Assembly (NCBI GenBank): GCA_016748015.1
Contig: JAAOMT010000602.1
Location: 571,696 to 635,695, forward strand
Direction of reading: 5' to 3'
Origin: Geosiphon pyriformis uo1
Lineage: Eukaryota; Fungi; Glomeromycota
Length of the DNA stretch: 64,000 nt
Position 1 is the stretch's first letter. Every line of letters starts with the position of its first letter. Positions 33,524-64,000 of the stretch are shown one piece after another. The notes beneath the pieces are model-generated. The model was not told where the DNA came from. It ran no database searches and worked only from the letters and a program-made list of their open reading frames with translations. Both the position numbers and the translations under genes were made by a program.

Positions 33524-33960
33524 TCATCCAGTTGAACCAAAACCTTGGGTTCTTCTTTCACTTTTTCCCAATAGTTCTCTTTGATTGACTAATTGTAAAC
33601 CCAAAATGTTGATTAAGGGTAAATAAATAGCTTGAGCAATTTTTTTGGCATGTTCAATTTGAAAAAGTTTATTGGTTTCATTTTGTAACATGATTGTAAT
33701 GTCTCCTGTATATTCCGCATCTATGATTTCTTCTCTAACATTAATTCCTTTGCTCGCCAATAATAATCGTGAAGCAATTTGGACTATTGCCCTTGGTGGG
33801 ATTTTGAGGACAATTTTGAGATTGATTTTTGTGAGTGATTTAGGTTTGAGAGTAAGGGTATCTTTTTCTGGATATCTTAGATTGTATTCAGCATCAATTT
33901 CGTGGGCTTTTTCAGGCTTTATTCTTTGTTTATTGTTGTCAAAGTATTTGAGTTGTGAAG
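33524..33960 (-). pseudogene. dUTPase domain of H
   Basis: AHEIDAEYNL, QIASRLLL, EIIDAEYTGDI, KIAQAI, SERRTQGFGSTG. Confidence 0.92.
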
Positions 33961-38291: not shown

Positions 38292-38412
38292 TATAAGCAA
38301 TTTGAAATAACAGAAAATTATTTTTGGTGTATGGGTTTTTATGTTATTTTTGTTTTGTTTTTGTGAGATTGTTTCTAAATTATAAGAAGATAACTATAAT
38401 AATAAATTTAAG

Positions 38413-39798: not shown

Positions 39799-39850
39799 TG
39801 TTTGTTGGCTCTTTTGGTTAGTTAAGTTGAGTGTTGGTTTTTATGTTTTT

Positions 39851-41130
39851 CTAATCTTGTCTCATTCTGGAGAGACAGTCAACATTGGTGTGGAGTTTTC
39901 CTGGTTTGTGATGTACTATGTATTGATAGTTTGCTAGAAATCTTGTCCATCGAGTTTGTTTTGCATTCAGCTGAGTATTTTTGTTCTGAAGCCATTTGAG
40001 TCTAATATTATCAGTGATAATATCAAATTTTTTAGGCCTGAGATAAAAGTTGAAGTGATGTAGAGCCCAAATTACGGCTGCTGTTTTTAGTTCTATGGCA
40101 GGGTAGTTTTTCTCAAGTGGTTTTAATGTTCTGCTAGCATAAGCAATTACTCACTCATTTCTGTTGTCATTTAGTTGTGATAAGATGGCACCAAAGACAG
40201 TATATGAAGCATCTGTAGCTAGTCAAAATTGGTTGCTGAAATCCGGGTAGGCAAGAATTGGAGCTGTTGTCAGTTTTTCCTTGAGAATTCCAAAAGCTTT
40301 TTGGTGTTTGGTAGTCCATTTGTATTTAACGTTTTTGGTGGTAAGCTGGTTGAGGGGTTTTGCAATTTCCGAGAATCTTTTGATAAACTTCCGATAGTAG
40401 GATGCTAATCCTATGAATTCTCTTAGTTCTGTAGTGTTTTGAGGAGTTTTGAAGTTTTTGACAATGCTGATTTTTCCAGGATCTGGTTTGATTCCATCTT
40501 TACTAACAATATGACCAAGGAAAGCCAGGCTTGTTTTTCCAAAGTAGTATTTTTTGATATTGAGTTTTAGTCCTGCTTTTCATAATTGTTGAAAAACTTT
40601 TCACAGGTGTTTTAAGTGTAATTCAAACGATGGAGAATAAACATCAGTATTGTCAAGATAAATGACTACTGACTTCCAAAGAAGTCCTTAGTACACAACA
40701 TCCATTAATCTCTGAAACATTGCTGGTGCATTGCATAATCCAAAAGGCATTACATTAAACTCGTAATTTCTGCCTTGGGTAGTGAATGCTGTTTTGGGGC
40801 AATCATTGGGATCCATAGCAACTTGCCAGTAACTGCTTTCTAAATCTAGTATTGAAAAGTATTTGGATTTTCTAAGAGCATCTAACATGTCATCAATCCA
40901 GGAAAGAGGGTAGGCATCTCCAATTGTAACACTGTTGAGTTGTCGATAGTCAACACAAAATCGGATCTTTCCATTTATCTTTTTAACTAGCACTATAGGT
41001 AAAGCCCAAGGACTCATGGAGGGTTGAATGAGTTCATTGTTAAGCATTTATTGTACTTCTTCTTGAATGAATTGGTGGCTTTCTGGAGCAACTTGATATG
41101 CTTGTTGTCTTCTTGGTTTGGCATCTCCTG
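39851..41130 (-). pseudogene. RT and RNase H of I, ending in TAG at 39851
   Basis: PWALPIVLVKK, RFCVDYRQLN, MPFGLCNAPAMFQ, YLDN, LATDASYT, NYPAIELKTAAVIWAL. Confidence 0.92.
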
Positions 41131-41692
41131 TATAAATTTGGTGTTGGACTAAATTGGTTCTTCCTAAGTCATTGTTGTTTTCAGTGAAGATATCAGCAAA
41201 TTCTGCAATTAGCTCTTTGAGCTGGGTCTGTTGTTGTGGTTCAAGTTGTCCCATGTTGATTCAAGATAGTTTTTCTATGATAACATGGTAGTTTTTGGAG
41301 CTGGAGTTTGGGTTGATTTTTGGTAGTGAATGTCCAATAATTTCAGAGAAATTGGGGACTGTTTGGAGTAATTCTTGTTGAAATATATTACTGTGAATAA
41401 CTCCAATTTCTAAATTATTTAATAAAATTATGAGATAATTATTGGGGTTGTAAAAAGTAACTCGGACTTTCTTTGTTCTTTCTGGAATATAAATGTTTGG
41501 GATCAAAATATTATGTTCCAAGCAGACTTGTTCATTGAACTCAAAAATTTGTTGTATGGTTGTTGGCTTTGGGCAGGTGTAGATTTCCAGATGTTCTCCA
41601 AAGGGTGAGATGGTAATTGGTTGTGAAAGTCTGAGAATCTGGTGGGATTTGTTCTGTGTGTTAAGAGCTATATTAACTAAAACTGTGAATCG

Positions 41693-42130
41693 TCCAGTTG
41701 AACCAAAACCTTGGGTTTCTTTATCACTTTTTCCTAATTGTTCTCTTTGATTAACTAGTTGCAAACCCGAAATGTTAATTAAGAGTAGGTAAATAGCTTG
41801 GGCAATTTTTTCAGCATGTTCAATCTTAAATAGTTTGTCAGTTTCATTTTGAAGCATTACTGTAATGTCTCGAGCATATCCAACATCAATTATTCCTCCT
41901 TTGACATTGATTCCCTTGCTTGCCAGAGAGGACTGGGAGGTGATTTGAACTATTGCTCTTGGTGGAATTTTGAGTGCAATTTTGAGATTGATTTTTGTAA
42001 GAGATTTGGGTTTGAGAACAAGAGTATCTTTGCCTGGATATTTTAGGTCATATTCAGCATCAATTTCGTGTGCTTTTTCAGGTTTTATTCCATGTTTATT
42101 GTTGTTGAAGTATTTAAGTTGTAAGGCAGG
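41693..42130 (-). pseudogene. dUTPase domain of I
   Basis: AHEIDAEYDL, SQSSLASKGI, GGIIDVGYARDI, KIAQAI, ETQGFGSTG. Confidence 0.92.
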
Positions 42131-45100
42131 CTGATTTTTAATAAGGTAGATAGGTATTGTTTCAATTTCTTCCATTGCTTCAGGTTCTCCAAATTCAATT
42201 TCATTCTCATCATTTTCACTGGGCAAGGGGATACTAAGAGCGTAGTATTCAGAACACTACTGTTCATTGCAAGGCATAATGCATTCTTCACATAGCCTAA
42301 TGTTCATTTGCTCTAATTATTGAATTTGAGCTTTTTGAGTTGGGTAGGTGTGACTTGCAATTTGGTGGTAGACTTCTACTTCATCTTCGTAATTGAATCC
42401 AGCTAATTCTATAATGTATTCAATGTATTCTGCTTCCTTCATTTGACGAACATCTTCTTTGGTAGCTCCATTAATTAATGCCATTGCTAAATCAAAAATC
42501 ATCTCAGCATCATGGAGGTAGTGATAAAGTTTGTTGAAAACACTGTTGTATACCACATTAAAGGGTGTTCCTCTTTTTACTTTCTCTGAAATTGATAAAG
42601 CATATTGGCAGGTCTGATCGCAGACTCCTCCTCTTATGGTTACATCAATCCAATTGCATTCTTCCAGTAGCATATCTCCACAAGTCAAACAAGAGGTGTT
42701 GTCCCATTTTCCACTTCTTTTTATTAGATGGCCCCATCATTCTCTGTGGCAAGCCTTGCAGTAATAACAAGTATGATTTTAATATTTTTCTTCAGGTGAA
42801 ATGCAGGCTCCCATTGACGATAGTTTTTTGTGGCAGTCCTTACATTTAAGAGGAATATAAGAGCATTGTTTCTTTGGTTCAGGTTTTGAGTAAGGGATAT
42901 TCCATTCAGAGGTTTCGAGTTCAGAGTGTGGGGTAAAATGTTCTTGTTCTGTTTTATCAGCCCAGTTGGACATTAATCCAAGAGCCATGAATGTTTCAAT
43001 AAGGGGTTTTTTTTCTTCCGGTTCAAATTCAAAAGCTAGGGCTTTTTCAGAGTGTTTGTTAAATATACCACAAGTGGCAGGTACCCGGGTGTATTATTCT
43101 TGGTAGGAGATTGTTAACTCTTGTGTTTCTCAATTCAGATTAGCATTGGCTTTTTGAAGCCAATTATTTCTGATGAGAGCTTGGTACTGGGGTGCGTCCA
43201 TTGCAAGAACTTTGACTGGAATAATAATTCCATCAAGAGTGAATGGAAAATTGTCAATTTCTCCTACTGGGGTCTTTTTCATGCCATTAGCAGTGACGAT
43301 TACTGTTTGAGCTGGTCAGTCAACATTTCTCTTCAACTGTTGGATTAACTGGTAGGTGATAATGCTTCCAGTGGATCTACTGTCTAGGATCAAGCAAATT
43401 GTCTTTCTTTCGACTTTTGCTTCAGTGTACATAGCCATGATTGCTTTTTGTTCATTGGCAGCTGTATTGCTAAGCAGGAATAGTGACTTATTTGCTTCGA
43501 ATTCAAAAAGGAATATATCTGAAGTTAGCATTTTCAGCGATTCTGGCTGGTGGGATTGTGGTGAGAGTATAGGAAGAGTTTTGTTGTTGTGCTGCAGCTC
43601 TACCTTCTAAGGATGCAGTATGATAAAAATTCTGTTCTTCTGGTATTGTTAAATAACTGGGTTGAGTGTGGTAGTGGTTGGGTCTTGGTTGAGTGGAATT
43701 TCAGGAAACCAATTGGTTGTTTGAACTGATTCTATTGTTGTTTACTTGGTATCGGTTTTGTGATGTGAATTGATTTTGTGTAATCAGTCTTCAAGCAGGT
43801 ATTTGATAATATTGTGTGGGTGGTTGTTGGTATTGCTGTTGGATTGGCTGTGGAGCAGGCTGATAATAGTTATTTTGGTATTGGAGTCTTGGTGGATAGT
43901 AAGCTGGTGGTCGTGGTTGATAATAAGATTGCTGTAGTAGAGGGTAACGTTGATTACTCCTATTTTGTTGGTTTTGTTGTAGCTTTCTGCAATCTTTTTT
44001 CCAGTGGCCAGAGATTCCATAGTAATGGCAATTCTGAGGCTGGTTATTGAAAAGTGGTGCAAAGTTATTTTGATTTTGTCTTTGGGGTAATTGATATCTT
44101 TGGGGTTGCTGTTGTTGTTGATTGGTAAAATAGTTTTCAACCTTCTTTGTGAGTTGGTCAATTTTTTTCTCGGCTGTTGAACTGGTTTCTCTAATTGCCA
44201 AATTTACAAGTTTTGTGCAATTGGTCTCTTCCATGGCTATTTCATATCTTTTCGCATGCTGTATGGCAGAGTTTAAATCTTCTGGCGCATGTGGGCAAAC
44301 CTTTTTAATTAGTTTATCTTTTAGACCAGCAATAAATTGATCCAAGATTTGAGCATCGGAATAATAATCGTTTGTTTTGAGTTGGCGAATTTGTCTAAGA
44401 AGTTTGTTGAATTTCCCAATATAAGTTATAACAGATTCGGAGGGTTCTTGTTTGATATTTCGAAAACAATTGTGAAGGGTGATGGAAGTATTATTGTCAG
44501 TAAACTGTTCAAGGAAGGCTGCTTTGAAAGTGTTCCAATCATTGAATGGGGCAGCCAAGTTTTCAAACCATTCTTCTGCTGTTCCTTTGAGAAAGTAGGA
44601 ATTTGTTCTTAACATTCTGGTAGCATTCCATTCATTTGCATCTTCAGCTTTAGTAACTTGGTTGAGTCATTCTTGGGGACTGGTCTCAATGTCTTCTCCA
44701 TTAAATTCAGGGATTTTTGCGATGTATGTTGTCATTTTATCTTCTTTGTTCTCACTCTTTATTGATTTTTCTTAAGATATTTCAGGTTTGTTTTTTTCAT
44801 TTGCTGCTGTCTTAGTGTTCACTTTGATTTTCAGCTAAAAAGTCAAGGAGATTGGAATTAGTTTGAAGGGGTTCTTGTTGTCTAATGGGACTTCTGAGTG
44901 ATGTAAAATTTTTTGGTCTTGTAAATCAATTCAAGGGTGAATTAGGTGTTTGTGCTTGTGCAAGTGAAGCTGGAAAAGGTGTGATAGTAAGTGAAAGTTT
45001 TGAACTGGTTCCTTGTTCAGGTGTTTGTAAATGGTTGGCAGTTGTTTTTGGTAGTGTTGGAGTATTTGGAGTGGTTTTTGAGTATTGCTTCAATTGGTTT

Positions 45101-45510
45101 TTGCCTTTGTTGCTTGTTTCTGTTTCCGATTCAAAATCAATAATGTATTGAGATTGCACTGGATATGTTTCTTCACAGTATTTGATAATGTTAAAATTAA
45201 GTTTGTGAAAGTAAGTGGCAAGTGTTTCACTGTTAAGATCTTCAGTTCCCAACTGTGAATAGTGTGCTAAATTATTGTAAAGGTTGTTTCTAACTTCTGA
45301 GATATTGTAATTTCCAAAAAAATAATTGTTGATGCAGTTTTCAATGTATTGGTATACTAATTTCTTGACAACTTCAATTCCGTCTGGAATGTTCAATCTT
45401 TGCTTGCAGTGGGTGTAAATTGACTGGTAATACTCTAGAGTTGTTGCGTCTGGTATGGTCACCACTTTGAAGTTGTTTTTGCTGTGTTGTTTCCATGGGA
45501 GAGCACCAAA
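42131..45510 (-). pseudogene. N-extension, Gag, protease and Cys-rich region of I
   Basis: ORFs 44926-45465, 43791-44615, 43316-43531, 42779-42988 and 42317-42688; first ATG at 44735. Confidence 0.9.
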
Positions 45511-46490
45511 TATTACTGGAGGTTTTTGGTTTCTTTTCTTAAATGTTGTTGATGCTTGTTTGCTGTGAATTCACGTTTTCTGGATGTGGTTGAACCTCCA
45601 GTAACTGAATTTATCTTCAAATTATCTCTTATAATTTGAACTGCTGGGCTTATAAATGGAATGGCCAATTCCGTGCCAGTTGCTTTATGTAGTTACGTTG
45701 TAGTAAACGTCAACTCTTTCCCAGGAAATGCTCATCTGGAAGCTCACTAAAAATGTGTAGTTACTTTGCTGTGAAAGTCAACTCTTCTACAGGAATCTTG
45801 TCTGTAGACTACCCTAATGATTATAGTAAGAAAATAAAAAGAAAATAAAAAAATGTAAAAAAAATAGAATTCTGTTAAGGAAAATGTTTTCTATCCAGGC
45901 CTGAAGTCACTAACAGTTTATTGAAATTGGTAGCTAATCAATTTCGAAATGTTAGTTGGGTTTTGGGAATTTTCCAAGTGCAATAATTAAAAAACTTGGT
46001 TTTTTAAATTATTTTATTTATTCCTTTTTGTGTGTATAGAAATGGTTCTAAGTGATAAATCTAAAGTAAAATACATTTTTTCAAAGAGAAAAGCTCTTCT
46101 TTTATACAACTTGTCATAACACTATTCTATGAACTTGAACTTTGCTATTTTCTACAATTTCACTGAACTAAAGATACATTTTGACAAACTACAAGTTATT
46201 TCTACGAACTATTAGATATTTCAGTGAACTATCAATTATTTCAGCAAATTTCTACAAATTTCGGCAAACTTTTGAATGTTACATAGTTTGGGGTATTGCA
46301 TGATTGATCATCACAATTAGGTTACATTTGTGTTATGTACAATTTGGGTTATTAATTAAATAATAATTTCAGACATTTTTGCTAATGTAATAAGTGATAA
46401 TTTGAAATGATAATATATGCTAATTAATGATAGGAATTATAAGATAATTTTATGCTTAATAATATCTCTAATTTCGTCTGATAACATCAT

Positions 46491-47210
46491 TTTCTTTGTT
46501 CACTGCTGTCTCAGAGTATTCACTTTGATTTTCAGCTAGAAAGTCAAGGAGATTGGAACTAGTTTGAAGAGGTTCTTGTTGTCTGGTGAGACTTTTGGGT
46601 GATGTAAAATTTTCTAGTCTTGCAAATTGATTTAAGGGTGAATTAAGTGTTTGTGCTTGTGCAAGTGAAGCTGGAAAAAGTGTAATAGTAAGTGGAAGTT
46701 TTGAACTGGTTTTTTGTTCAGGTGTTTGTAAGTGTTTGACAGTTGTTTTTGGTAGTATTGGGGTATTTGAGGTGGTTTTTGAGTATTGCTTCAATTTTTG
46801 TTTGCCTTTGTTGCTTGTTTTTGTCTCTGATTCAAAATCAATAGAGTATTGAGACTGCACTGGATATGTTTTTTCACAGTACTTGATAATGTTAAAATTT
46901 AGTTTTTGAAAGTAAGTTGCAAGTGTTTCACTTTTAAGGTCTTTAGTTTCTAACTGTGAATAGTGTACTAAATTATTGTAAAGATTGCTTCTAACTTCTG
47001 AGATATTGTAATTTCCAAAAAAATAATTGTTGATGCGGTTTTCAATGTATTAGTATACTGATTTCTTGACAACTTCAATTCCGTCTGGAATGTTGAATCT
47101 TTGCTTGCAGTGGATGTAAATTGATTGGTAATACTTTAGAGTTGTTGTGTCTGGTGTGGTTGCCACTTTGAAGTTGTTTTGCTGTGTTGTTTCTATGGGA
47201 GAGCACCAAA
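46491..47210 (-). pseudogene. N-terminal gag extension of H
   Basis: Nearly identical to 30125-30845 (G) and 44790-45510 (I). Confidence 0.85.
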
Positions 47211-48197
47211 TGTTACCAAAGGTTTTTGGTCTGTTTTCTTAAATGTTGTCAATGCTTGTTTGCTGTGAATTCACGTTTTCTGGATGTGGTTGAACCTCCA
47301 GTAACTGAATTTATCTTCAAATTATCTCCTATAATTTGAACTGCTGGGCTTATAAGTGGAATGGCCAATTCCGTGCCAGTTACTTTGTATAGTTACATTG
47401 TAGTAAACGTCAACTCTTTCCCAGGAAATGCTCATCTGGAAGCTCACTAAAAATGTGTAGTTACTTTGCTGTGAAAGTCAACTCTTCTACAGGAATTCTT
47501 GTTTGTAGGATACCCAAATGATTTATAATAAGAAAAGAAAGAGAATAAAGAAAATGTAAAAGAAAAAGTAAAACTGATGATTTATAGAAGTTGTTTTGAA
47601 TCCAGACCTGGAAGTGCTTTAACAGTCTACTGAAATTGGTAGCTAATCAATTTCAAACTGTTAGTAGGAATTGGTTAATTTCAAGGGAAATAATTTAAGA
47701 ATTTGGCTTTTCAAATTTATTTGATATTTTATTTTGTTTTTGTGTGTAAAGAATAATTCTAATTATTAAATCTGAAGTAAGATACATTTTCTCAAAGAGA
47801 GAAGCTCTTCTTTTATACAACTTGTCATAACACTATTCTATGAACTTGAACTTTGCTTTTTTCTACAATTTCACTGAACTAAAGATATATTTCGGTAAAC
47901 TACAAGTTATTTTTGCAAACTATTAGATATTTTAGTGAACTATCAATTATTTTGGCAAATTTCTACAAATTTTGGTGAACTTTTGAATATTACATATTTT
48001 GGGGTATTGCATGATTGATCATCGCACTTAGGTTATATTTGTGTTATGTACCAATTAGGTTATTAGTTAAATGATAATTTTGGACATTTTGCTAATGTAA
48101 TAAGTGATGATTTGAAACAATAATATATGTTAATTAATAATAAGATTTATAAGAGTAATTTCATGCTAAACAATATCTCTAATTTCGTCTGGTAACA

Positions 48198-51100
48198 CTG
48201 TTTAGCAATGTAGCTGCCAACGAACAAAAAGTAATCACTGCTATGTACACTAAAGCAGAAGTCGAAGGAAAGGCAATTTGTTTGATCCTAGACAGTGAAT
48301 TTGCCGGAAGCAATATCACCTACCAGTTAATACAACAGTTAAAGAGAAATGTCGACTGACCAGCTCAAACAGTAATTGTCACTGCCAATGGTATGAAAAA
48401 GACTCCAGTAAGAGAAATTGACAATTTTCCATTCACTTTTGATGGAATCACCATTCCAGTCAAAGTTCTTGTAATGGATGCACCCCAGTATCAAGCCCTT
48501 GTCGGAAATGATTGGCTCCAAAAAGCCAATGCAAAATTAGACTGAGAAACCCAAGAATTACAACTCTCCTATCAAGGACAACATGCCTGAGTACCCACTA
48601 CTTGTGGTACATTCAACAAATGATCAGAAAAAGCCCCTGTTTTCGAATTTGAAGAAGAAAAAAAAAAGATTGTAGTCAAAACATTTATGGCAATTGAATC
48701 AACATCTAACTGGGCTGAAGAAACTGAGCAAATGTATTTTGCAACAAACTTATATCCAGAGGAACCAGAAACTCCTGGATAGAACATCCCATATTCTAAA
48801 CCAGAACCAAAGAAATGACACCCTTACATTCCGCTTAAATACAAAGACTGTCACAAGAAACTCTCCTCAATAGGAGCCTGTATTTCACCTGAAAAAGAAT
48901 ATGAAAATCATACTTGTTATTACTGCAAGGCTTGCCACAGAGAATGATAGGGCCATCTAATAAAAAGAAGCAGAAAATGGGACAACACCCCTTGTTTGAC
49001 TTGTGGAGATATGCTATCAAAAGAATACAATTGGATTGATATAGCAATGAGAGGAGGAGTCTGTGATCAAACCTGCCAATATGCTTTATCAATTTCAAAA
49101 AAAGTCAAAAGAGGAACATCTTTTAATACAACATACAACAATGCTTTCAACAAACTTTATCACTACCTCCATAATGCTAAGATGATTTTTGACCTAGCAA
49201 TGGCATTAGTTAATAGAGTTATCCAAGAAGATGTTCGTCAAATGAAAAAAGCAGAATACATTAAATACACTATATAATTAGCTGGATTCAATTATGAAAA
49301 TGAAGTAGAAGTGTACCATCAAATCACAAGTCACACCTATCTGACTAAAGAAGCTCAAGCTCAATGGCTAGAACAAATGAACATTAAATTATGTAAGGAA
49401 TGCATAATGCCTTGTGATAAACAATGGTGTTTTGAATGCTATGCTCTTAGCATTCCCTTGTCCAATGAAAGTGATGAATACGAAATTGAATTTGGAGAAC
49501 TTGAAGCAACAGAAGAAATTGAAACAACACCCATCTATCTCATCAAAAATCAGCCTGTCTTACAACTCAAATACTTCAACAACAATGGACAAAAAATAAA
49601 ACCCAAAAAAGCACATGAAATTGATGCTGGATATGACCTAAGATATCCAGACAAGGATACTCTCATTCTTAAACCCAAATCTCTCACAAAAATCAACCTC
49701 AAAATTGCTTTCGAAATCCCACCAGGAGCAATAGTTCAAATTGCCTCTTGGTCCTCTCTGGCAAGCAAAGGAATCAATGTCAGAGGAGGAATAATCGACA
49801 CTGGATATACTAGTGACATAACAGTAATACTCCATAACAAAATTGACAAGCTGTTTAAGATTAGACATGCCAAGAAAATTGCCCAAGCCATTTATTTACC
49901 CTTAATTAACATTTTGGGTTTACAATTAGTCAATCAAAGAGAACTATTGGGAAAAAGTGAAAGAGGAACCCAAGATTTTGGTTTAATTGAATGATTCACA
50001 GTTCCAGTAAACATAGCCCTCAACAAACAGAAAGAATCTCACCAGATTTTATGACTTCCACAACCAATTACCATTTTACTCTTTGGAGAACACCCTGAAA
50101 TTTACACTTGTGAAAAGCCAACAACCACACAACAAATTTTTGAGTCCAACGAACAAATCTACTTGGAACATAATATCTCGATCCCAAACATTTATATTCC
50201 AGAAGGAACAAAGAAAATTCGAGTTACTTTTTACAATCCCAACAATTTTCCCATAGTTTTATTAAATAACTTAGAAATTGGAGTTATTCACAGTAATATT
50301 TTTCAACAAGAACTATCCCAAATAGTTCCCAATTTCTCAAAAATCATTAGACATTCACTACCAAAAATCAACCCAAACCCCAGCTCTAAAAACTATCATG
50401 TTGTCATAGAAAAACTATCTCGAATCAACATAGGACAACTTGAACCACAACAACAGAGCCAGCTCAAAAAGCTAATTGCAGAATTTGCTGATATTTTTGC
50501 CGAAAACAACAATGACTTAGGAAGAATTGATTTGGTTCAACACCAAATCTATACAAGAAATGCCAAACCAAGGTGACAGCAAGCCTACCGAGTTGCTCCA
50601 GAAAGTTACCAATTTATCCATAAAGAAGTACAATGGATGCTCAACAATAGGCTTATTTAACCATCAATAAGTCTATAGGCTTCACCTGTGGTCTTAGTTA
50701 AAAAGAAAAATGGAAAGATACAATTTTGTATTGATTATTGACAACTCAACAGTGTCACTATTGGAGATGCCTACCCTCTTCTCCAAATTAATAACATGCT
50801 AGATGCTCTTGGAAAGTCCAAATACTTTTTGACATTAGATTTAGAGAGTGAATACTGGCAAGTTGCCATGAATCCCAAAGATCACTCCAAAACAGCATTT
50901 ACCACTCAAGGAGGAAATTACGAGTTCAATATAATGCCTTTTGGATTATGCAATATACCAGCAACATTCTAAAGACTCATGAATGTTGTTTACAAAGGCC
51001 TCTTTTGGAAATCAGTAGTTGTTTATCTTGATGATACTAATGTCTATTTACCATTTTTTGAATTACACTTAAAACATCTGTGCAAAGTTTTTTAATGATT

Positions 51101-51833
51101 ATGAAAAGCAGGATTGAAACTGAACATCAAAAAATGCTACTTCAGAAAAACGAGTTTGGCCTTTCTTGGTCACATTGTTAGCCAAGATGGAATTAAACCA
51201 GATCCTGAAAAAATCAGCACTGTCAAAAACTACAAGACTTCATGAAATACCACAGAATTAAAAGAATTTATTGGATTAGTATCCTATTACTGAAAATTTA
51301 TTAAAAGATTCTCAGAAATTACAAAACTCCTCAACTAGCTCACTACTAAAAACATCGAATACAAATGGATAGAAGAACACCAAAAAGCTTTTGAAATTCT
51401 CAAGAAAAAGCTAACAACAGCTCCAATTCTCGTCTATTCAGACTTCAGTAACTGATTTCAACTAGCTACAGACACTTTTTACACTGCCTTTGGTGCCATC
51501 TTATCACAATTAGATGACAACAGAAATGAGTAAGTAATTGCTTATGTTAGCAGAACATTAAAACCAGCCAAGAAAAACTACCCTGCCACAGAACTAGAAA
51601 CAGCAGCCGTAATTTGGGCCTTACACCACTTCAACCTTTATCTCAGGCCTAAAGAATTTGATATTATCACTGATAATATTGGACTCAAATGGCTTCAAAA
51701 TAAAAACACTCAGCTGAATGCCAAACAAACCTGATGGACAGGATTTTTAGCCAACTACCAATATATTGTATACCACAAACCAAAAAAACTCCATATCAAC
51801 ATTGATTGTCTCTCAAGAATGAGACAAGATTAG
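48198..51833 (+). pseudogene. pol of G: protease, Cys-rich domain, dUTPase (~49540-49990), linker, RT, RNase H; stop at 51831
   Basis: LILDSEFAGS; AHEIDAGYDL..GGIIDTGYTSDI..SERGTQDFG; VVYLDDTNVY; LATDT; LSRMRQD*. Confidence 0.92.
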
Positions 51834-51879
51834 AATACAAAACCAACACCCATTTGAATTAACAACAAAACAACAAACA

Positions 51880-53266
51880 ATGAATCCCGAAAACTACAAC
51901 AATCTTAAACAATATTTGGAGACATTAACAATTCCAACAGATTGGTCTTCAGATAAAAAAACATTAGTTACAACAACAAGCCAAACAATACTTCTTACAC
52001 AACAACATGATTTATTATCGAAACTTCAGAAACTCAGACAATCCACTCAGATTAATACAAGAACATGAAAAAGAAACTATTTTATATAATATGCACTCAG
52101 ATCCTTCATTAACACACCTAGGAAAAAACAGCACCACTCAGAGAACACTAGAATATTACTTTTGGCCTTAAATAAGAAAAAACATTTATGAATACATTAA
52201 GTCTTGTGATAGTTGTCAAAGAAGAGGAGGAACTTGTCCTACAGAACCTTTAAATTCAATCAAAGTTGGACAGTCTTTTAACTGAATTGGTATTGATTTA
52301 GTCGGACCACTACCTATCACAAACCAAGGAAACTGTTATATTGTAATAGCTGTAGACTATCTCACCAAATGGCTTAAAACCAGAGTCATTTAACAAGCAA
52401 ATGCGAAATCAGTAACAAACTTCATCTATGAAGACATCATTTGTAGACATGAATGCCCAATAAAACTTTTATCTGATCAAGAAACACATTTCATAAACAA
52501 TTTAATCCAGGAAATTTGTGGACGATTTAATGTCAAGAGACCATTATCTTCACCCTACTATCCACAAACAAATGGACTTGTAGAATGGTTCAACAGAACA
52601 TTGTGTGAATCATTAGCCAAAGTTTCAACCGATTTTGAGCAAGAATAAGATTTCTTTATTCCATTAGTGTTACTAGCATATAGAACACTAAAACAAGATA
52701 CCACGAAACACACACCATTTGATTTAACTTATGGAAGGATGGCAACATTACCAATTAGTTTCACAGTGGAAACATACTCAGCACAACCAATCAATGAAAA
52801 CAATTTCCAAGAAATGCTTCAGTGAAGAGCCTACACTCTGCTTAGCACATTGAAAGAAAAACGACGAATAGCAGCCACCCATATTGAACACTCCCAAGCT
52901 CAACAAAAAGAATGGCATGATGACAAATTGCCTTCAGTTACCAATGAATTTAAAATTGGAAACAAAGTTCTCTTATACAGAACTAAAGCTGAAAAACAAT
53001 AAAGTGGAAAATTTGAAAATAAATGGGATGGACCATTCTTTATCCATAAAGTCCTAGGCAACGGATCATACAAGCTAAAACTTGATGACAAAATCTTAGC
53101 AAAAGTTGCACATGGAGATCATTTGAAACACTATAATTCCAGACACAATCCTGAACCATTAATTCCACAAATTGGTACACATTTCCTTTTAATCAATCCC
53201 AAAAATATTCTCTAAAATTTAGAACCAATAGTTGTTATTGAACAACCTCCCAACTTGAACACTTAA
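51880..53266 (+). pseudogene. Integrase of G (separate ORF)
   Basis: ATG at 51880, MNPENYNNLKQYLE; CDSC; IGIDLVGPL; KWDGPFFIH; stop at 53264. Confidence 0.92.
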
Positions 53267-53388: not shown

Positions 53389-54108
53389 ATGACTATTCCT
53401 CAAAACATTCAACAATTATCCCAAAAACTAATGTTAGCTTTAAAAAGAATACTCAAATTATCCATTACTGTTACTGGAAACCACATTAATTATACTCAAA
53501 CAAAAGTAGTTACAAATTTAACCCCAAATTCACAAAAATATCACCCATATAAGAAAAACACAAGAAGTTATTCTGGAATTCACCTGTCAGAACTTTTAAA
53601 GCTTGCTTTAAGAGAAAACTTAATACTCATTCTTATTAGTATTCTACCAAATGCTACTATTCAACAAAAACTTCAACTGTGTCTTAATGAAGAGAACTAC
53701 GACTATACTCCAATATATAGATATTTTTACATTAGAAAAACACTTCACAAATGAAAACGGAAGCTTACAGCAACAAACCTCACAAAAGAAGCTATTCGGA
53801 AACAACTCTACAATGAATTCAAAACAACAGCTGGACCTACAAACAGTCGTTATAAACTAAGAGCTGCTCTTAGACTTTATGACCTATTTCACACCTGTGA
53901 AAACGTCCTACAAAACCCAATTTTACAACCTTTAAAGATTCAATACATTGGAAAGCTCACAGAACTGAAATTTCAACAATTTTCAGACCAAATTTCTTCA
54001 ATAATTTTGGATTATTATCTGGAAATTACAGACAGTACTTGGACTTCGATGGAGCTCAGTCTTAAGAAGAAGGTTATGTTACCAGATAAAATTAGAGATA
54101 TTATTTAG
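53389..54108 (+). pseudogene. ORF3 of G (239 codons, one internal TGA at 53752), unknown function
   Basis: ATG at 53389; the same frame continues KRKLTATNLTKEAIRKQLYNEFKTTAGPTNSRYKLRAALRLYDLF...VMLPDKIRDII* with the stop inside the 3' LTR. Confidence 0.8.
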
Positions 54109-55046
54109 CATAAAATTATCTTTATAATTCCTATCATTAATTAGCATATATTATCATTTCAAATAATCACTTATTACATTAGCAAAATGTCCGAAATTAT
54201 CATTTAATTAATAACCCAATTTGTACATAACACAAATGTAACCTAATTGCAATGATCAATCATGCAATACCCCAAAATATGTAACATTTAAAAGTTCACC
54301 AAAATTTGTAGAAATTTGTAGAAATAATTGATAGTTTACTGAAATATCTAATAGTTTGCAGAAATAACTTGTAGTTCGCCGAAATGTATTTTTAGTTTAG
54401 CAAAATTGTAGAAAAGAGCAAAGTTCAAATTCATGGAATAGTGTTACAACAAGTTGTATAAAAGAAAAGCTTCTCTCTTCGAGAAAATATATCTTACTTT
54501 AGATTTATCACTTAGAACCATTCCTACACACACAAAAAAAATAAAAATCAAATAATTTGAAAAACCAAATTCTTTAATTATTGCACTTGGAAAATTCCCA
54601 AAACCCAACTAACGTTTTGAAATTGATTAGCTACCAATTTTAGTAAACTGTAGTGACTCCAGGCCTGGATAGAAAACGTTTCTCTTGACAGAATTCTATT
54701 TCTTTTACATTTTTTTTATTTTTTTTCTTTTATTTTCTTATTATAATTATTAGGGTAGTCTACAGACAAGATTTCTGTAGAAGAGTTGACTTTCACAGCA
54801 AAGTAATTACACATTTTTAGTGAGCTTCCAGACGAGCAATTTCTGGGAAAGAGTTGACATTTACTACAACATAACTACACAAAGCAACTGGTCATTCCAC
54901 TTATAAGCCCAGCAGTTCAAATTATAGGAGATAATTTGAAGATAAAATTCAGTTATTGGAGGTTCAAACACTTCCCATAGTCATGAATTAATAATACTAC
55001 ACCAAACATACAAGAGCTAAGAAGAGACCAAAAATCTCCAGTAACA

Positions 55047-55731
55047 GTAAATAGTATAGTAATGATAATAGTTTTTTGATTCCAAATCTTTAACTTAGTT
55101 CTGCTAATGTTTTATTCACAAAATGAGTTTCTTGATCAGATAACAATTCTTTTGGACATCTATGTTAACAAATTAAATCTTAATAAATGAATTTGGCAAT
55201 GGATTCTGCATCTGCTTTTTGAATGGCTTTTGCTTCTGGCCATTTAGTAAGATAATCCATGACTACTACAATATATCTGTTGCCTTTGCTGGTAATTGTT
55301 AATAGTCCAACTAAGTCAATTTCAATGTGATCAAATAGTTGTCCCACTTTGATTGGTCTCAATGGTTCACTGAATCTTGTTCCTTTTCTTTTCTAACAAA
55401 CATCACAATTTTGAATATATTGAATAATGTCTGGATATATTAATGGCCAATAATATCTTTTTCTGGTTCTTTCCATGGTTGCTTATTTATGAAAATGTTC
55501 TGCTGTTGGGTCTGAATGCATGTTGAATAGTATTGTTTCTTTCTCTAATTCTGTAATTACTCTAATTGTTTCATCTGGATTTTTTCTGTTTTTCTGGTAA
55601 AATATATCTTGGTGAATAATAAAATATTTGGATTGTTGTTTGATATGACTTCATTTTTTTGGAGATAATTTTTTCTTAAACTGCTGGGTATTAATATAAT
55701 GTTAGAGTTGTTGATATTTTTGTATATTCAT
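55047..55731 (-). pseudogene. Integrase of F, N-terminal half
   Basis: ATG at 55731, MNIQKYQQL; HSDPTAEHF..CDVC; MDYLTKWPEA. Confidence 0.87.
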
Positions 55732-55953
55732 CTTTTGTTATATTTTTGTTTTCAACTGTTTAAATTTTGTTATATTTTTGGGTTGAAATGTTTTTTAGAT
55801 TTGTTTTATTCTTAATAAACCAGAAACTTTTTTCTCTTGTTGATTCCCTGACCATAACAAGAGCAAAATTTTATCAGAATTTTAATTAGTTTTTTCTTTC
55901 TTTTCTCTTTGTTTTTTTCTAATTATTTTTTCGACTTTTTTCTCTTTGTTGCA

Positions 55954-57851
55954 ATGAAACCAGTGGGCTTCTCTGCTTGTGGTTCTAGTTCCATTTCGGC
56001 TGGGTTGGGGACCTGGTCTAATAATAAAAAGAAAGCATATATTAAGAGCATATACTCTTATGGCCCTTTGTACAAGAAATCTAAGAATCCTAGAAATACT
56101 GATGGTATGGTAGATTTGTCAACTGGTTCTATTTCTGGTGACGTTTTACAAGCTAGCATTTTAGAACACAAGGAGTTTTGGGGTAGCAAAGTGGAAAGTG
56201 AGGAAGCTAGTGTTAGTGGAATATCTAACTTGAAAAACATGGACAACATGATAACAAAGAAAATAAGTTATGTAGATTCCAATGACTCCGAAGCTAATAA
56301 TATAGTAAATGATATAACTCTAAGAAAGACATAAATGAGGATGTATGTTCTAGAACAACTGCCAAAAAAACTTTCTTTCAATAATATGAGTAATGTTGAT
56401 GACATTTTGGAGCTCCCATCTCCTAAGTTTTATGGTTTCAATCAGCTGCTGAGTGCCAAGTCATGTGTTTTGGAAAAGAGGAGCTTTGAGCCAGTGAAAT
56501 CATTTACATTAGATATTAAGCTTTCAGTTATTCCAGGCAAATCTGTTAATAACAAGTTGATTTTAATAAAAAAAATTTTTTATCAAGTTGATGAGTTTGG
56601 GGGAGCCTCTGCTCCCTTAAAATTTCCAGGGATCATCAGATCTTTATTTACTTTGGAATTGAGCTTAAATAAAGCTAAAAAAATAACAATTTGTGAAAAT
56701 ATTTTGGTAAACAATAATGTTAAGAAGCTAAATAGTTGTTTGGATCAGGAAATAGTTGTCAAAGAGATTTCAGTCAATCTTTCCAAATTGGCTGTGGAAT
56801 CAAATTTGGCAAGATTGTATCAATTAAGATACAATTGATTGGTCTGTGGCAGAAAGCATTGGTTGAATATGAATTGTTTGAGATAGCTAATTTGGTCGCA
56901 GCTAGATAGTCTGTCTTCATGGAAAAGAATTCTGTTCATGTGACAAAAGCCATTGATAATAAACAAATATGAGTTTCCAGAGATTGACATTGGACTTTGT
57001 TGTATACACTTCTAGTTGGCATTATTGCTCATAATTTGTCAGGATTATTGGATTCTTATAGTGGAAAAACTTGTTTTATTGGCTGTAATCTGGCTATATA
57101 TGTTTGTAATAAGTGTGTTGTGATTTGTTTCAGTGATGAGGCATCCAAATTGGCTGCCATGAGTTCTCTGCTTGTTTTCAAGAGTGTGAATTTGTGCTGG
57201 GCTAGTCTTTTTCTAGTCTGTTGTGCCAATTGTAAACAATCTGGTCATGTTTTTGAATTTTGTTTATTGGGTGAATTTTTTGGTGTTCATGGGAAATAGA
57301 TGGTAACTTTTCAAGATTAAGTCTATTTGGCCAATATATATAGAAAGAAATAAGCACCCATTGCTTATCCAGTTTCTTTTGGTAGTCTCTCCTGGGTAAA
57401 AGTTGTTGGTAGATTCTCTTTTTCTCCTCTCTCTGGTCAAAATGTTTTGGCAAACATTGGCTCTTTTTCAAAGATGAAGTCATCCTTACCAGTTGCAAAT
57501 GAAATCAATGATAGGTTTGCCACTCTTGAACACAGTCTTGCCAGCCTCACAGAGCAAGTTGGTAAGCTGGCTAAGAGATTAGATGCACTTGAGTCAATGG
57601 TTTCTCAGCCTAGCCTTGGATGTCAGCCATTGGTAACCCTTTCATTACAGAATCAAGGAGTGGATGCAGTGATAAGTAAAAGTTCAGATGCATCCACTAG
57701 TAGTGAGACTGTTGTGGGAGTAGTGTTATTTGATGTGTCTTCAGTGTCTAAGCTGAAATACAGCATGAGATGTTTGATAGAAACAGTTCTGGGCCTTTCG
57801 ACCAAAGTGGACATTCTTGGTACAAGTTTGGTTCCCCAATACACTTCTTAA
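55954..57851 (+). pseudogene. LINE ORF1 (RRM-like region, CCHC knuckle, C-terminal coiled coil)
   Basis: ATG at 55954, MKPVGFSACGS; CANCKQSGHVFEFC ~57220; DRFATLEHSLASLTEQVGKLAKRLDALE; stop 57849-57851. RRM and coiled-coil calls are by eye. Confidence 0.82.
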
Positions 57852-60800
57852 TAAGTGATTTAGTTTGGAAAGTTGCTACTTGCAATATTAGAGGAATGAA
57901 CAATTTTGTGAAACAGGATGATATTATTTGTTGGCATAAGAATATGAACAATTTGATTTTTATTGTTACTAAAACTAAGTTAAAAGATAAGATTTATCTA
58001 TGGTTCATAAATAAGTTTAGTGGTGTCTGGATTTTCACTTCTGGTTTGAATTCTGATCATATGGGCTTTGGTGTTATAGTTATTATAAATGTTTCTTTGA
58101 CAAGACATGTGAGCAAAGTTTTTGAGGTACCTGGTTGGCTCCTGTCTATTAAGTTGTTTTTTAAGAATAAACTTTTCATGTCAATTTTGGGGCTTTACAC
58201 TGGTGTTTCTTCAGTAGTTTGGTTCTTTCAGACTAACAAAATCAACTCTCTCATTGCTAAGACTGTGAACGAATCTACCTTTGTCATTCTTGGTGAAGAT
58301 TTCAATAAGAACAGTTCATGTAAATGTGCTAGTTTCAAAAAGTGTCTCAATCTGGGACTGGTTAATTCTCTGTTGGGTAGCTTAGTCATGAGGGATCTCA
58401 TGTGAAAAAATTCAAGAGATGTTAAAAAAACAATTAATTATGTATTTGTCTCTCCAAATCTGGTTAATGCAATAATATATTGTGATGTTTCAGAGGTTGG
58501 CAAACATTTTGATATGAATTACTGGGCAGTTTCAGTGTCCATAAGTTTGAGTGGGCTTTTAGATACACAGTTGAACTCTCTTTGCAAACAAGCAAATAAG
58601 GATCATTGGAAATTTGATGTCAAGTGCATGGATGAAAATAAATAGACCAAGTTTAAGAATACTACATTGGCCAATGCTGCAATGTTTTTTGATGAGTTTG
58701 CTGTTACTGTAAAGTTCTCAAATCTGAATGCCATGTAAGATGTTGTGGACAAGGTGATGTGTCTTTTAGCAAATGAATTTTTTAAAAAAAAGTGGTTTAA
58801 AAGGTATGATAGTGTTTTTATCAAGGAATCCTCTAAGTTTTACAAGCTTGAAGTTTTGGTGTCAAGAATTGCCAAGATTTTGCATGAGGATGTTAGTAGT
58901 GCTTTTGAATTTTTGATAAACTGCTAGAAGTCTTTAGATGCTGATAAAATTTTGTCTATTCAGGCTCTGTTGAATTCTGATGTGAATTTTGATCATGTGC
59001 ATTTGATTCTTTTCAAGATGTAAAAATCATATTGTGCCTTCAAGCTTGCTGAGTTGTTACAGGCTGAGGAGTCAAGAATTAGGTCAGCTGTTAATAAACA
59101 AATAGAAAATTTTGTGGTCAACAAAGATTACATGATCAGAAGTGTGCTGAAGTGTCCTTTTCAAAAAGTGGTTTTAGACCATCTGATGATTGAAGATGAA
59201 CTGATTTTGGAGCCCAATCTGGTTAAAACCAAAGTGGATGTTATAATAGAGAGCTGAACTAGAAAGCATGAAATAATGGAGGACTTCTTTGATAATTGAT
59301 TTCATCAATATCAGCCTTTGGATTATGTTTTTGATGATGCTTTTTTAGGAGTAATGTGTTTGGTTAGTTTCAATGAATTGCTCAGTGTGATGTCTAATTT
59401 ACCTAATGGCAAGACTGCCAGTTTTTTTGGAATTTCAAATAAGCTTTGGAAGTATTGTAACAAATCAGTCATGGATATGCTGTTGGTTCTCTTAAATTCT
59501 TGTTTAACTCTTGAGACAGTGCCAGGTGCTTGGAAGGAAGCCTGGGTCTTAATAATTCCCAAGTCATATGAGTGGAAGGGAATTCTTATGAACACTCAAC
59601 CTATTGTCCTAATTAAGACTGCTTGCAAAATTCTTTTTAAGATTCTCTTGGACAGGATTTTTTCAGTGTGCAGTATTTTTAATGTTTTGTAAAGGGACAA
59701 TTTCTTAGTTTTGAAGGATATGACTATGCAATTTCTAATTTTTGCTATTGGTTTGGTAGTTGAGAATGCATTAGAAAAGAACTGTGAGCTCTGGTTGGTC
59801 TTGCAAGACATGTAAAAGGCCTACAATTTAGTAAATTGTAAGCATCTTAAGAGAAGCTTGGTTAGAATAAAAATGTGCAATAAATTCATTAGATTTTTTG
59901 GTGACATTCACAATAGTTATGTTAATAGGGTTATAACAGATTTTGGTTTAACAGATAGATATTAGATACATGATGATTTGAATTAGGAAAAGGTCTTTTC
60001 ACCTCTTTTCTGATGTATATTTTATGATCCTCTTTTGTGTAAGGTCAAAAGACAGGAAAGTGTATGTAGATATAGATTGAACTCTCATTTTATTGTCAGG
60101 ACTGGTCATGCAGAATCTCAGGCCAGGTTGATGTCTTTTCTTACTGCTGTTGCTTTTGTCAATGACATGATATGAGTTGGTAACAGTTAAGCTGTAACAA
60201 AACACATTTTCAATGTTGCTAGTGAGTTTTTTAAGATCAATGACATTTCTATTAATAATAACAAGATGGTGGCCATTCTTATAAATTGTGGAATAAAATA
60301 TCTTTCTTTGTTAATTAGTGGTTCACCTATTTTTATTACTAAGAAAGAAGAGTCTTATCACTACTTAGGTATCTTTTTGTCTACGAATAGTTTGTCGAAG
60401 CCTAGTTTAGCTAAGGTGCATTTGGACATCAGGTTTTTTGTTAATCTTGTGCTACAGAAGACCATTTCAGATAAACAGTTCTTATATTTAGTGTTGATTG
60501 TTCTATGTTTTATTGTTAGCTACAGAATGCAATTTAGTTTTGTTCCTATTGGAGTGTGTGAAAAGTGGGATGCTCTGGTTCACAAGGTGTTGAAATTGAA
60601 GTCTGGTCTGCCTCTTGACTTTCTTAGTAATGCACTTTATCACTCTTCTTTATATGGTTTAAAGCTTTTTGAGCAAATTCAGGCTAAAAGCAAGGTGGTT
60701 TCTGTTGTGTGCTTTGTAAACTCTGTTGGGATTTTGGAACGTTTGTTTTTACACAGATCTCTTGACTTGCAAACTCTGAGTTGGTGCCCAATACATCTTT

Positions 60801-62529
60801 TAATCTCTCCAGTTCGCATTAGGGTCAGCCCTTCTAATAATTTTTTGGCAGGTGTGGTTTATATTTTTTTTGGCTGCAATTTATTTTTGGATGGTCTGAT
60901 GGTCAGTTCTTTCCACTTTTGGAATGAAACTCCTATGTTGACTGTTCTTAGTGAAATTAATTTCTCTAGATTTCTTTTTTCACTTTGCTGCTATAATATA
61001 GCCTTTGTAGAACAGCTTCGTAGTCAGAAGAGCACTGTTTTTGATTAGAAGACTTTTAAGTAATGGAAAAGACTGGACTCACATGGCCTTGTTCCAGACT
61101 GGTTTAGGTTTTTTGTTGACTTTTTTAGTGGCATAACTTCTTCTTCTGCCAGTCCTTCCCCTTTGGGTGATTATGGACTTTCGAATGTTCTAGGGTCTAA
61201 TGAGTTTGGACTTGTTTGTAAGCAGTTGTTAAATGTTGCAGCTGATACCTTATTTGTATATATGGATGGATCTTTAAGGAACTTGGACAGTGCTGATGTG
61301 AAGACTAGCATGGCAGTTTTTTTTGAGAATGTGAACTTGGATTTGGGAGTTAGGATTTCTAGTCTGTTGTTCTCTACTTTAATAGAGTTGCAGGCTATTG
61401 CTTTAGCTCTTGAGTGTATCTTCTTTTTCAGCTCAGTTTGCCTTTTCACTAACAGTCAGACTGCCTTGGATGCATGCAAATTGGAATTGAGTTTGATGCA
61501 TCCAGATTTTTGGAATCGGTGTTGGATTGAGCATCAGCACATTGTAAACATTATTAGGAAAAAGTCTTTAAATGTCAGTTGGTATAAGATTAAAAATCAC
61601 TTGGGTGTCTTGGATAATAAACATACAGACGCTCTTGCTGATACAGCTTCTTTTTTCCCCTAGTGTCTTTCTCTTAACTTGAAGAAATGTTATATATTGG
61701 CAGAGGATGGTGTTGTTTCTGAGAATTCTAGACATTTTGTTCATGGAATTTTTTGTTCTATTTATCGTGCATGTTGGGAGCTTGGTTCTGGATCTGGAGT
61801 TTTGGATGGTAGTTTGCTTTCAGATGTAGATTGGCCTAGCTCATTATCAGTGTGGCATCTCAACTTGCATATGGCTGCTGGGTTCACTAATAAGCTTACT
61901 GCCAGTACTTGTATATACTTTATAAAAGTCTTGTATTATTGATTGTCTGTTGCTGTTTAAAAGCATCTGTATAATAAGTGTTATCTCAGTGTGTTATGTC
62001 TGTATTGTGAAGATGTTGAGGTCTCAGATCATGTTTTTTTTTACATGTTTGATAATTTGGCTTGTTGTTGTTTATTAGACACTTATGTAACTATTTGGTA
62101 TGCATTTTCTGATCTTTTTGTCTTCTTTTTATGTGTATCTTGTTTTTTGTCATCTGGTATTTTGAATGTTGCAATGTGTATAGCTCTTTACAAGGGCTTT
62201 GTTTTTAAGGATTGGCTTTATAAGGCTGCATCAGTTTTTGAAGATTCCAAAGTTGTGAGTCAGAAGATTGTGGACTTTGTGTGTGACTTTTGTCTTGCTT
62301 TTAGGGAAAAGATTTGGTTGGTCTATGCCAAGCATCATGCTTTTATGAAAAAGAATGGGCTGATACCATTTAATGGATCAATTCTAAAGTCAGTTTTAGG
62401 GTTGTTCTTGTTGTTTTCTGCTGGTATGATTAAACTATTGGGTATTGATGAGGCATTTGGTATAGAGTTAAGTCTTATTTGTTTCTCTTAGATATTGAAA
62501 GGCCTATTTTTGTTTATATAGATGCTTAG
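57851..62529 (+). pseudogene. LINE ORF2 (APE endonuclease, RT, RNase H, C-terminal Cys/His finger)
   Basis: KVATCNIRGMN..ILGEDFN..INYVF; AFVND at 60152; YHYLGI; VYMDGSL..IELQAIALAL..NKHTDALA; CLYCEDVEVSDHVF. Confidence 0.9.
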
Positions 62530-62663
62530 TGTTGTCCTAATCAGCTTGAGTGGCTGGTTGTGTGTAGAAAATGCATGATTTACATCTAGTTTAGATTAAT
62601 TATTTGATGTATTGCACTAGGCAGTGTTTGAACCTCATTCATTAAATGAATAAAAAAAACAAA

Positions 62664-64000
62664 AACAAACCATCAGTATTTCCATTTTTTTTTCCTTTTT
62701 TGTAATGTACTGTATAATTAAATAGTGAAAGTTCTATTTTCCATCTGACATAACAATCATCTCCAAATTCTTGCTTCTGAATTAAAGTCAATCTTTTATG
62801 ATCAGTATAAACATCAAACTTTTGACTCAAGTATTTTTTCCATTTGATGACAGTCCAATAGATAGCTAAGTATTTTAGTGCTAGAGTTCTATAGTTCTTT
62901 TTAGCTGGACTTAAGCTTTTGCTGGTGTAAACTACTGGGTGTTCTCATCTATCTGGTTTTTTTTGAAATAGTACAGCTTCTAATGCTTGACCAAATACAT
63001 CTGTAGTAATGATGAATGGTTTGCTATAATCTGAATAAATTAATACTGGAGCTTGAATAAGTTTTCTTCTTAGTGTGTCAAAAGCTTTTTGTTAAGTTTC
63101 AGTCTATTCATATTTAGTGTTCTTTATTTGAAGTTAGTGTAGTGGTTGAGCTATTTTAGAAAAGTTTTTGATGAAGTGGTAGTAATATCTTGTAAATCCC
63201 AAGAATACTTGTAATTCAGTCAAGTTAATGGGTACTGGAAAGTTTTTAACTATTTCAATTTTGTCTGGATCTATTTTGATGCTATTTTTGCTTATAATAT
63301 GTCCTAAAAACTTCAATTCTGTTTTTTCAAAGAAGCATTTAGTGGTATTTAGCTTTAATTCAGCTTTTTTTAGTCTTTCAAATACTTGTTAAAGATAATG
63401 TAAATAATCATCGAATGTCTTTGAGAACACATTGATATCATCCAAATATATGACTACTGATTTCTATAACAGTTCAGTATAAACAATTTTCATAAGCCAT
63501 TAGAATATTGCTGGTGTATTTATCAAGCCAAATGGCATTATTTTAAACTCAAAATTTCTTTCTCAGGTTGTAAAAGTCATTTTCTTCTTATTTTCTGGTT
63601 TTATGACTACTTGTTAGTAACTACTGTCTAAGTCTAAAGTCAAGAATCATTTTTTTCTTCCAAAAGTGTCAAAAAGTTTTTGGATCTTTGGAGTTGAATA
63701 GCTATCTCCTTTGATTACTTCATTAAGTTTCTAGTAATTCACACAAAAGTGGATTTTTTTATTCTTTTTATGGACTAGTACTACTGGTAACAATCATAGG
63801 CTCATTAATAATTGAATTAATCCATTGTTTAATATTTGATTGATTTCTTAACAAATAATTTCATGGCTGGCTGATGGTACTTAGTATGCTCTTTGTTTGA
63901 TTGGCATTGCATTTCTGGTCTTGATCTAATGCTGGATTATCTTAGTTCTGCCAAATTTGTTTTCACTTGCAAAAATATCAGTGAAGTTGTTAAGTAATAT
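62664..64000 (-). pseudogene. RT and RNase H of F
   Basis: MPFGLINTPAIF, YLDDINVFS, KFLGHII, ITTDVFGQAL, VYTDHKRL, KKNGNTDG. Confidence 0.9.

Follow-up and report, generated by a model that had tools for sequence, protein, structure and literature searches.

In the standard description of Ty3/Gypsy retrotransposons, as set out in the available part of PMC3248453, integrase (IN) is encoded inside Pol. Stop codons closely followed by a new start are familiar from elsewhere: in the accessible sections of PMC5972666, SART1 shows coupling through a UAAUG and LINE-1 a 63-nt inter-ORF spacer, and overlap of stop and start is described, there and in excerpts of PMC10275272, as the arrangement used for termination-reinitiation in caliciviruses, influenza B, fungal viruses and SART1. 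We analysed a window (the whole stretch of 64,000 nucleotides from Geosiphon pyriformis) harbouring four copies of Ty3/Gypsy-type elements in which IN instead stands outside Pol. The copies fall into two families (A, copies G and I; B, copies D and F), all old and related, and their main features are listed here by position in the window.

50448–51830, plus strand: RT-RNase H end of Gag-Pol in copy G, decayed, with 14 internal stops (tblastn with the intact RT-RNase H of locus L039)
51831–51833, plus strand: Pol stop codon TAG of copy G, after LSRMRQD (read from the sequence)
51834–51879, plus strand: spacer of copy G, 46 nt, A/C-rich, AUG-free, unstructured, +1 frame (sequence, and folding against shuffles)
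51880–53266, plus strand: separate integrase ORF of copy G (HHCC, rve core, GPF motif), decayed, with ATG at 51880 opening MNPENYNNL
53389–54108, plus strand: ORF3 of copy G, 239 codons, interrupted by one stop and extending across the polypurine tract into the 3' LTR (translation count; tblastn from the L001 ORF3)
54077–55046, plus strand: 3' LTR of copy G (TG..CA)
36628–46486, minus strand: copy I, a full-length family-A element with LTRs of about 975 nt that are 93.9% identical
39799–39853, minus strand: Pol stop TAG (39853–39851) and 52-nt spacer of copy I (read from the sequence)
38413–39798, minus strand: separate integrase ORF of copy I, ATG at 39798 (Pfam Integrase_H2C2 and rve)
37572–38291, minus strand: ORF3 of copy I, start decayed to ATA (coordinates counted from the output)
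20091–20126, plus strand: junction of copy D (family B), with TAA at 20091–20093, a 30-nt spacer holding a second TAA, and a decayed ATA start
55729–55797, minus strand: junction of copy F (family B), with TAA at 55797–55795, a 63-nt spacer holding a second TAA, and ATG at 55731

An earlier reading made from the sequence alone had proposed that integrase is a separate ORF behind a stop codon and a spacer, and this was borne out at all four junctions of the window. Of the RNase H end motifs given in that sequence-only reading, the one for copy D needs correction, its decayed end reading LL*IRQI and not LLRIRQI; in copy F a 6.8-kb insertion interrupts the RNase H end about 30 nt upstream. The integrase of copy D runs on to about 21364 (plus strand), and that of copy F is broken by copy G and picks up again at 29153. 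All window spacers are rich in A and C (70–87% A+C). It was also correctly seen that the family-A spacers shift frame, both to +1, and that those of family B stay in frame and hold a second TAA, which lies two codons ahead of the start. A second Pol-frame stop is found inside the family-A spacers as well; the copy I spacer has a stop in the IN frame, and in copy G the IN frame opens three codons ahead of the Pol stop. Between G and I the spacer is 69% identical, as against 88% over the 300 nt before it and 85% over the 300 nt after it, and the spacer therefore drifts like non-coding DNA. A weak 6-bp hairpin, seen in these two related copies, ends a few bases short of the Pol stop (51806–51825, plus strand, and its equivalent in copy I).

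Copy I reads in the order Gag, protease, Cys-rich insert, dUTPase, RT, RNase H, stop, IN and ORF3. Gag carries a CCHC knuckle and its region matches a Geosiphon pyriformis protein at 80–84% in the best segments, a polypurine tract is present, and a TGG-starting tract after the 5' LTR is a candidate primer-binding site. The 5' LTR of copy G (29154–30124) is 94.4% identical to its 3' LTR, and the element is flanked by a 4-bp target duplication, GTAA. In family A the dUTPase and the Cys/His-rich insert lie between protease and RT (41261–43500, minus strand), and some relatives (P0222, P0248, P0264) carry a NUDIX domain in Pol in their place. A coding-like stretch upstream of the Gag core (44815–45558, minus strand), which has its beginning inside the 5' LTR and a match of about 80% in a Geosiphon protein, is either a long N-terminal extension of Gag or an extra ORF. 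The copies are nested across 28392–62664: G lies within the F integrase, copy H (32165–48197) within G, and I within H. Copy H is devoid of RT, RNase H, IN and ORF3 and resembles an internally deleted, non-autonomous copy, and a solo LTR is found at about 11020–12001. The 6.8-kb insertion (55830–62664, plus strand), which splits copy F just within the RNase H end, contains no Pfam family at E ≤ 0.01; judged by eye it has endonuclease-, RT- and RNase H-like stretches and an A-rich tail, and we take it to be a decayed non-LTR element.

RT-RNase H contains 6–15 internal stops per copy in I, G and F. Because the copies are old, related and full of such stops, the window alone cannot exclude decay, and we gathered 80 metagenome loci with an integrase alignment, several of which are near-complete elements. 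RNase H is found upstream of IN in 54 of these, the other 26 being left out without an RNase H match (short upstream DNA or long Pol tails), and in every one of the 54 Pol terminates ahead of the IN start or right on it. With L054 set aside (no ATG), the 53 ATG-bearing loci form 44 clusters at 90% and 27 at 70% IN identity, and both frames are long and unbroken in 19 of them (Pol of at least 450 aa, IN of at least 400 aa). Across the full set the IN frame is closed at most 47 codons upstream in 76 loci and the remaining four end at a contig edge; none is fused. The same break was sought in a DNA run: the 196 contigs of run X1, possibly from the window's own sample, list variants at 9 places of the 131-nt stretch but neither at the stop nor at the ATG; 1-nt and 2-nt deletions in the spacer, which may stem from dead copies, account for 28% and 7% of depth.

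Searches by protein gave a concordant picture close to the lineage and fused forms further out. A search starting from RT, independent of integrase and allowing lengths up to 1812 residues, left 89 full-length single-RT rows among the 120 matches listed, after 31 partial or multi-RT rows were dropped. Among these listed matches IN is absent in 42 of 42 at 55% identity or above, and fused forms account for 7 of 25 at 54–55% and 13 of 22 under 54%; the fused relatives listed, where named, are animal elements. Chimeric gene models with several RTs took up much of a profile-free search of representatives, from which only single-RT rows were kept. Among the 40 matches of an integrase search extended to longer proteins, the closest fused ones are P0122 and P0123, both NCBI gene models that contain neither the RNase H end motif nor the IN start, gaps such as false (predicted) introns would give. 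P0128, a predicted gene model from Rhizophagus, keeps the RNase H end and runs on into IN, a point against the proposed layout. Named IN and RT homologues come from Rhizophagus and Cetraspora. A 448-residue integrase of Rhizopus delemar (P0131) aligns from the same first Met and suggests, at the protein level, that the split may reach Mucorales. The viral collection returned only 16 weak matches (26–37% identity), which were not used.

The sequence-only reading had named a continuous RNase H-IN frame in intact copies as the outcome that would tell against it; none was found, all 54 informative relatives being split, and the stop, which it had called conserved, is ancestral. That the stops are independent decay in dead copies, as the many internal stops of the window copies might suggest, is next to impossible, given the same break in intact relatives, the unvarying stop amid varying neighbours in run X1, and a G/I spacer that is less conserved than its flanks. 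The separation of integrase from Pol is confirmed as real, lineage-wide and ancestral.

Behind IN, an ORF of at least 110 codons is present in 34 of the 42 loci with room for one, which upholds the tricistronic order Gag-Pol / IN / ORF3 proposed earlier. These ORFs are conserved: 29 belong to one similarity network, the L001 ORF3 matches copies G and I, and 18 of the 34 end near a purine tract. In the window the third ORF is seen for family A only. ORF3 is not an envelope protein, with a membrane segment (19-residue hydropathy above 1.6) in 0 of 34 and a predicted structure that is soluble and all-helical (pLDDT 95). Pfam returned two weak single-member matches among 26 and BFVD none at E ≤ 0.001; in structure comparison the best PDB hit has Z 5.2 and the Atlas yielded no usable match, which does not make the fold new.

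The start of IN is itself conserved. Among the matches listed in a length-limited search, 96 of 120 IN homologues begin at the same Met, and with 9 near-duplicates dropped for the start-context and AUG-density statistics, a purine stands at −3 in 38 of 44 loci (background 51%), a Kozak-like context. Spacers of 24–170 nt hold 2 AUGs where 28.1 are expected, a count as low as in none of 1000 shuffles, while GAT and TGA each occur 35 times in the same spacers. In spacer-type loci this depletion sets in about 50 nt before the Pol stop (0.5–0.8 vs 1.5–3.7 AUGs per 100 nt). At 15 of 53 junctions stop and start overlap by 1–20 nt, with UAAUG (L003, L020) and AUGA among the forms, and overlaps appear again at 4 of 34 IN/ORF3 junctions. 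Upstream AUGs are not depleted at the overlap-type junctions (2.4–3.8 per 100 nt), where one lies within 37 nt in 6 of 11. The RNase H-IN gap exceeds 100 nt in 13 of 53 loci, and the longest gaps hold several AUGs. Neither the window spacers nor the largest spacer group fold beyond shuffles, and Rfam gave no relevant match for spacers; that largest group usually folds less stably than its shuffles. Its members, the spacers of L002, L004–L007, L009–L012, L017, L025 and L039, have short spaced motifs in common, with a TGA..TTAAC tract before the AUG.

A subset of relatives carries a folded RNA at this place. A two-helix fold with a conserved 5' bulge and loop is common to 13 spacers; 91% of its cells are paired, and 8 of 14 pairs have changed on both sides. 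Searching 347 kb with a model derived from these spacers gives 28 matches, 27 of which end 3–32 nt before an IN start; 25 of the 27 have E < 1e-9, and 12 of those lie outside the training set. All 12 pairs covary, with a score reached by 0 of 500 shuffles, in an alignment of related sequences that was fitted to the model. No copy of the motif occurs in the window, it is absent from 53 of 80 loci, and it has no Rfam match. The position of the motif points to a role in translation of integrase. In the motif sub-lineage, L024, L032, L036, L043, L064 and L069 have Pol tails of 200–315 residues after RNase H, some with Cys/His-rich stretches. A second, different hairpin-like motif precedes the IN AUG in L062 (3737–3833) and L079 (296–406).

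Of the routes to IN listed in the sequence-only reading (reinitiation, splicing or an internal promoter), reinitiation fits best and splicing does not hold up. The near-absence of AUG from the spacers and the overlaps at 15 of 53 junctions lead us to favour, with modest conviction, termination at the Pol stop and restart at the IN AUG as the likeliest mechanism by which IN would be translated. An ancestral, protease-cleaved RNase H-IN linker would have become a stop and a spacer; some sub-lineages would restart on the overlapping codon (UAAUG, AUGA, −8 to −20) and others after crossing the spacer, one of them helped by folded RNA just before the AUG. IN would then be made beside its own genomic RNA and could be packaged via that RNA or a partner protein, with no need for a Gag fusion. 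The normal AUG density upstream of overlap junctions is more easily reconciled with such a position-set restart than with scanning that begins at a new 5' end, and the AUG-poor spacers look like a scanned stretch comparable to the 63-nt spacer of LINE-1. Counting against reinitiation, the window spacers of 30–63 nt exceed the TURBS-type limit of about 20–30 nt (PMC10275272, available part), gaps beyond 100 nt occur, and depletion from about 50 nt before the stop is also what a subgenomic start there would produce; plain scanning, in turn, would be impeded by folded RNA 3–32 nt before the AUG.

The last points lead to the alternative that a subgenomic RNA, made from an internal promoter near the RNase H end or by processing of the genomic RNA, yields IN and ORF3, to which we give a minor but real chance. 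The AUG-free, unstructured, A-rich spacers look like fungal 5' leaders, depletion begins ahead of the Pol stop in spacer-type loci, and proximity alone does not account for the 13 of 53 loci whose gaps exceed 100 nt; however, overlap-type junctions keep a normal AUG density up to the start, and the overlaps, which all fall within 20 nt, are seen again between IN and ORF3. Rather improbable is internal initiation, whereby a cis RNA element would bring ribosomes to the IN AUG independently of Pol, at least in the folded-motif sub-lineage. Such an element could be the two-helix motif in 27 of 80 loci, novel to Rfam and with both-sided changes in all its pairs beyond any shuffle, but the motif is missing from the window and from most loci, it could equally serve reinitiation or packaging, and its pair counts derive from related sequences, the 12 of 12 from an alignment fitted to the model.

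We consider it very unlikely that a spliced RNA puts the IN AUG first or fuses RNase H to IN. In a small number of NCBI gene models (P0122, P0123, P0151) RT and IN are joined, and family B has AAG directly before the start, part of the ATAAC..AAG that the sequence-only reading had likened to a splice acceptor. This likeness did not survive comparison: G precedes the ATG (−1) in 1 of 53 loci, and YAG within the last 40 nt is found in 15 of 33 where 20.2 are expected, which is below chance. In 3 of 13 sequences of the folded motif, moreover, the CAG has become CGG and a second base has changed to compensate, and P0122 and P0123, without RNase H end motif and IN start, look like predicted-intron artefacts. 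Recoding, by frameshift or readthrough into an ordinary RT-RNase H-IN polyprotein, has a similarly slim chance. A +1 shift is geometrically possible in copy G, both family-A spacers are +1, and of the 53 loci 18 have a shared open window and 3 just one in-frame stop. Against this, the offsets from Pol to IN are mixed (+1 in 24, +2 in 19 and 0 in 10 of 53 loci) and recoding is therefore unlikely, with 32 of 53 loci allowing neither route, in agreement with the earlier doubt about readthrough. The closest relative, L001, is in frame 0, the copy I spacer is interrupted in the IN frame, run X1 tolerates 1- and 2-nt spacer deletions (in what may be dead copies), and the Met and its context are conserved.

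The origin of the split was approached through trees and distances. FastTree on 164 RT-RNase H rows supports the split group at 0.96; with 46 rows, IQ-TREE does not settle the backbone and recovers one origin in 6% of bootstraps. In a tree of RT plus IN, 15 split and 15 fused rows part at 100/99, a result that is unrooted and partly circular because the loci were chosen by IN. P0128 was kept out of the trees for its short RT match. The split forms likely share a single origin, and this lineage of Ty3/Gypsy-type LTR elements probably belongs to Glomeromycota fungi. The stretch from the RNase H end motif to HHCC measures 98 codon equivalents in the split loci (30 with short tails) and 101 residues in the fused proteins (47); the distance is unchanged, and the spacer is therefore most simply the former RNase H-IN linker. 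We infer that the new AUG sits about where the protease would have cut. We tentatively entertain a broader scheme, on balance doubtful, in which a second translation start replaces protease release of IN, free IN is loaded without a Gag fusion, possibly via ORF3, and in one sub-lineage the two-helix RNA (with a possible 2-bp pseudoknot) places ribosomes on the IN AUG as a new class of reinitiation or internal-entry signal.

The location of IN within Gag-Pol is how LTR retroelements and retroviruses set the amount of IN and its entry into particles, and here is a large, apparently active lineage in which IN has no such link. The implication is a pair of questions: how fungal ribosomes reach a second and a third ORF behind a first one of great length, and how free IN finds the cDNA. 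Dozens of natural stop/start designs, together with a covarying RNA, are candidate tools for polycistronic expression in fungi. Annotations of arbuscular mycorrhizal fungi contain stand-alone 'integrase core domain' proteins and fused gene models, for which the split may be the reason, and annotation pipelines that demand one Pol ORF would call such elements broken. In the Ty3/Gypsy literature searched, no integrase ORF split from Pol is described; Repbase, GyDB, supplements and subscription journals lay outside the search, so a curated entry could exist.

Compared with canonical Ty3/Gypsy elements, the lineage has the same LTRs (TG..CA) with target duplication, polypurine tract, Gag CCHC knuckle, order of protease, RT, RNase H and IN, and HHCC/rve/GPF integrase, and its nearest fused RT relatives among the matches listed are 50–55% identical (with source names such as 'Pol polyprotein from transposon 297' at 53–54%). 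It differs in that IN has its own AUG and is not part of the Pol polyprotein, that a conserved non-envelope ORF3 follows and that, in family A, a dUTPase lies between protease and RT and the target duplication is 4 bp long. We file it as a Ty3/Gypsy-type variant and not as a canonical member. The chromodomain PF00385 that marks chromoviruses is not listed for any IN homologue among the 120 matches listed. Errantivirus or other env-bearing Gypsy elements are ruled out by an ORF3 without a membrane segment (0 of 34) and with a soluble helical model. Gmr1-like Gypsy elements have integrase upstream of RT and are ruled out by an IN downstream of RNase H in the window and in 54 loci. Ginger-type DNA transposons encode a stand-alone Gypsy-like integrase between terminal inverted repeats and no RT; they too are ruled out, as IN here lies within LTR-bounded, RT-bearing elements at the ancestral distance from RNase H.

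Among systems that set an enzyme apart, foamy viruses express the whole of Pol separately, from a spliced RNA. They share with our elements an enzyme made apart from Gag and packaged without a Gag fusion, whereas here only IN is separate and there is no conserved splice acceptor. DIRS and Tat likewise have a retroelement enzyme domain in its own ORF, but this is a tyrosine recombinase in DIRS and an accessory RNase H in Tat, and neither splits a DDE integrase from Pol. SART1 and LINE-1 place an enzyme ORF behind a stop via an overlap or a short spacer, as described in the accessible parts of PMC5972666, PMC10275272 and PMC3894237; both, being non-LTR elements, have no particle into which an enzyme must be brought, whereas our split falls within Pol, between RNase H and IN. 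The TURBS-type systems differ in two ways: most loci here, window included, have spacers of at least 24 nt, and the folded motif lies between stop and start and not upstream of the stop. TURBS-type spacing (about 20–30 nt) takes in the 15 overlap loci and three spacers of 24–26 nt among the 53, as against 30–63 nt in the window. What the lineage shares with calicivirus and influenza B TURBS, CHV1 and HvV190S, as far as PMC10275272 and PMC5972666 describe them, is stop and start within 20 nt of each other in 15 of 53 loci, with a precedent in fungal hosts.
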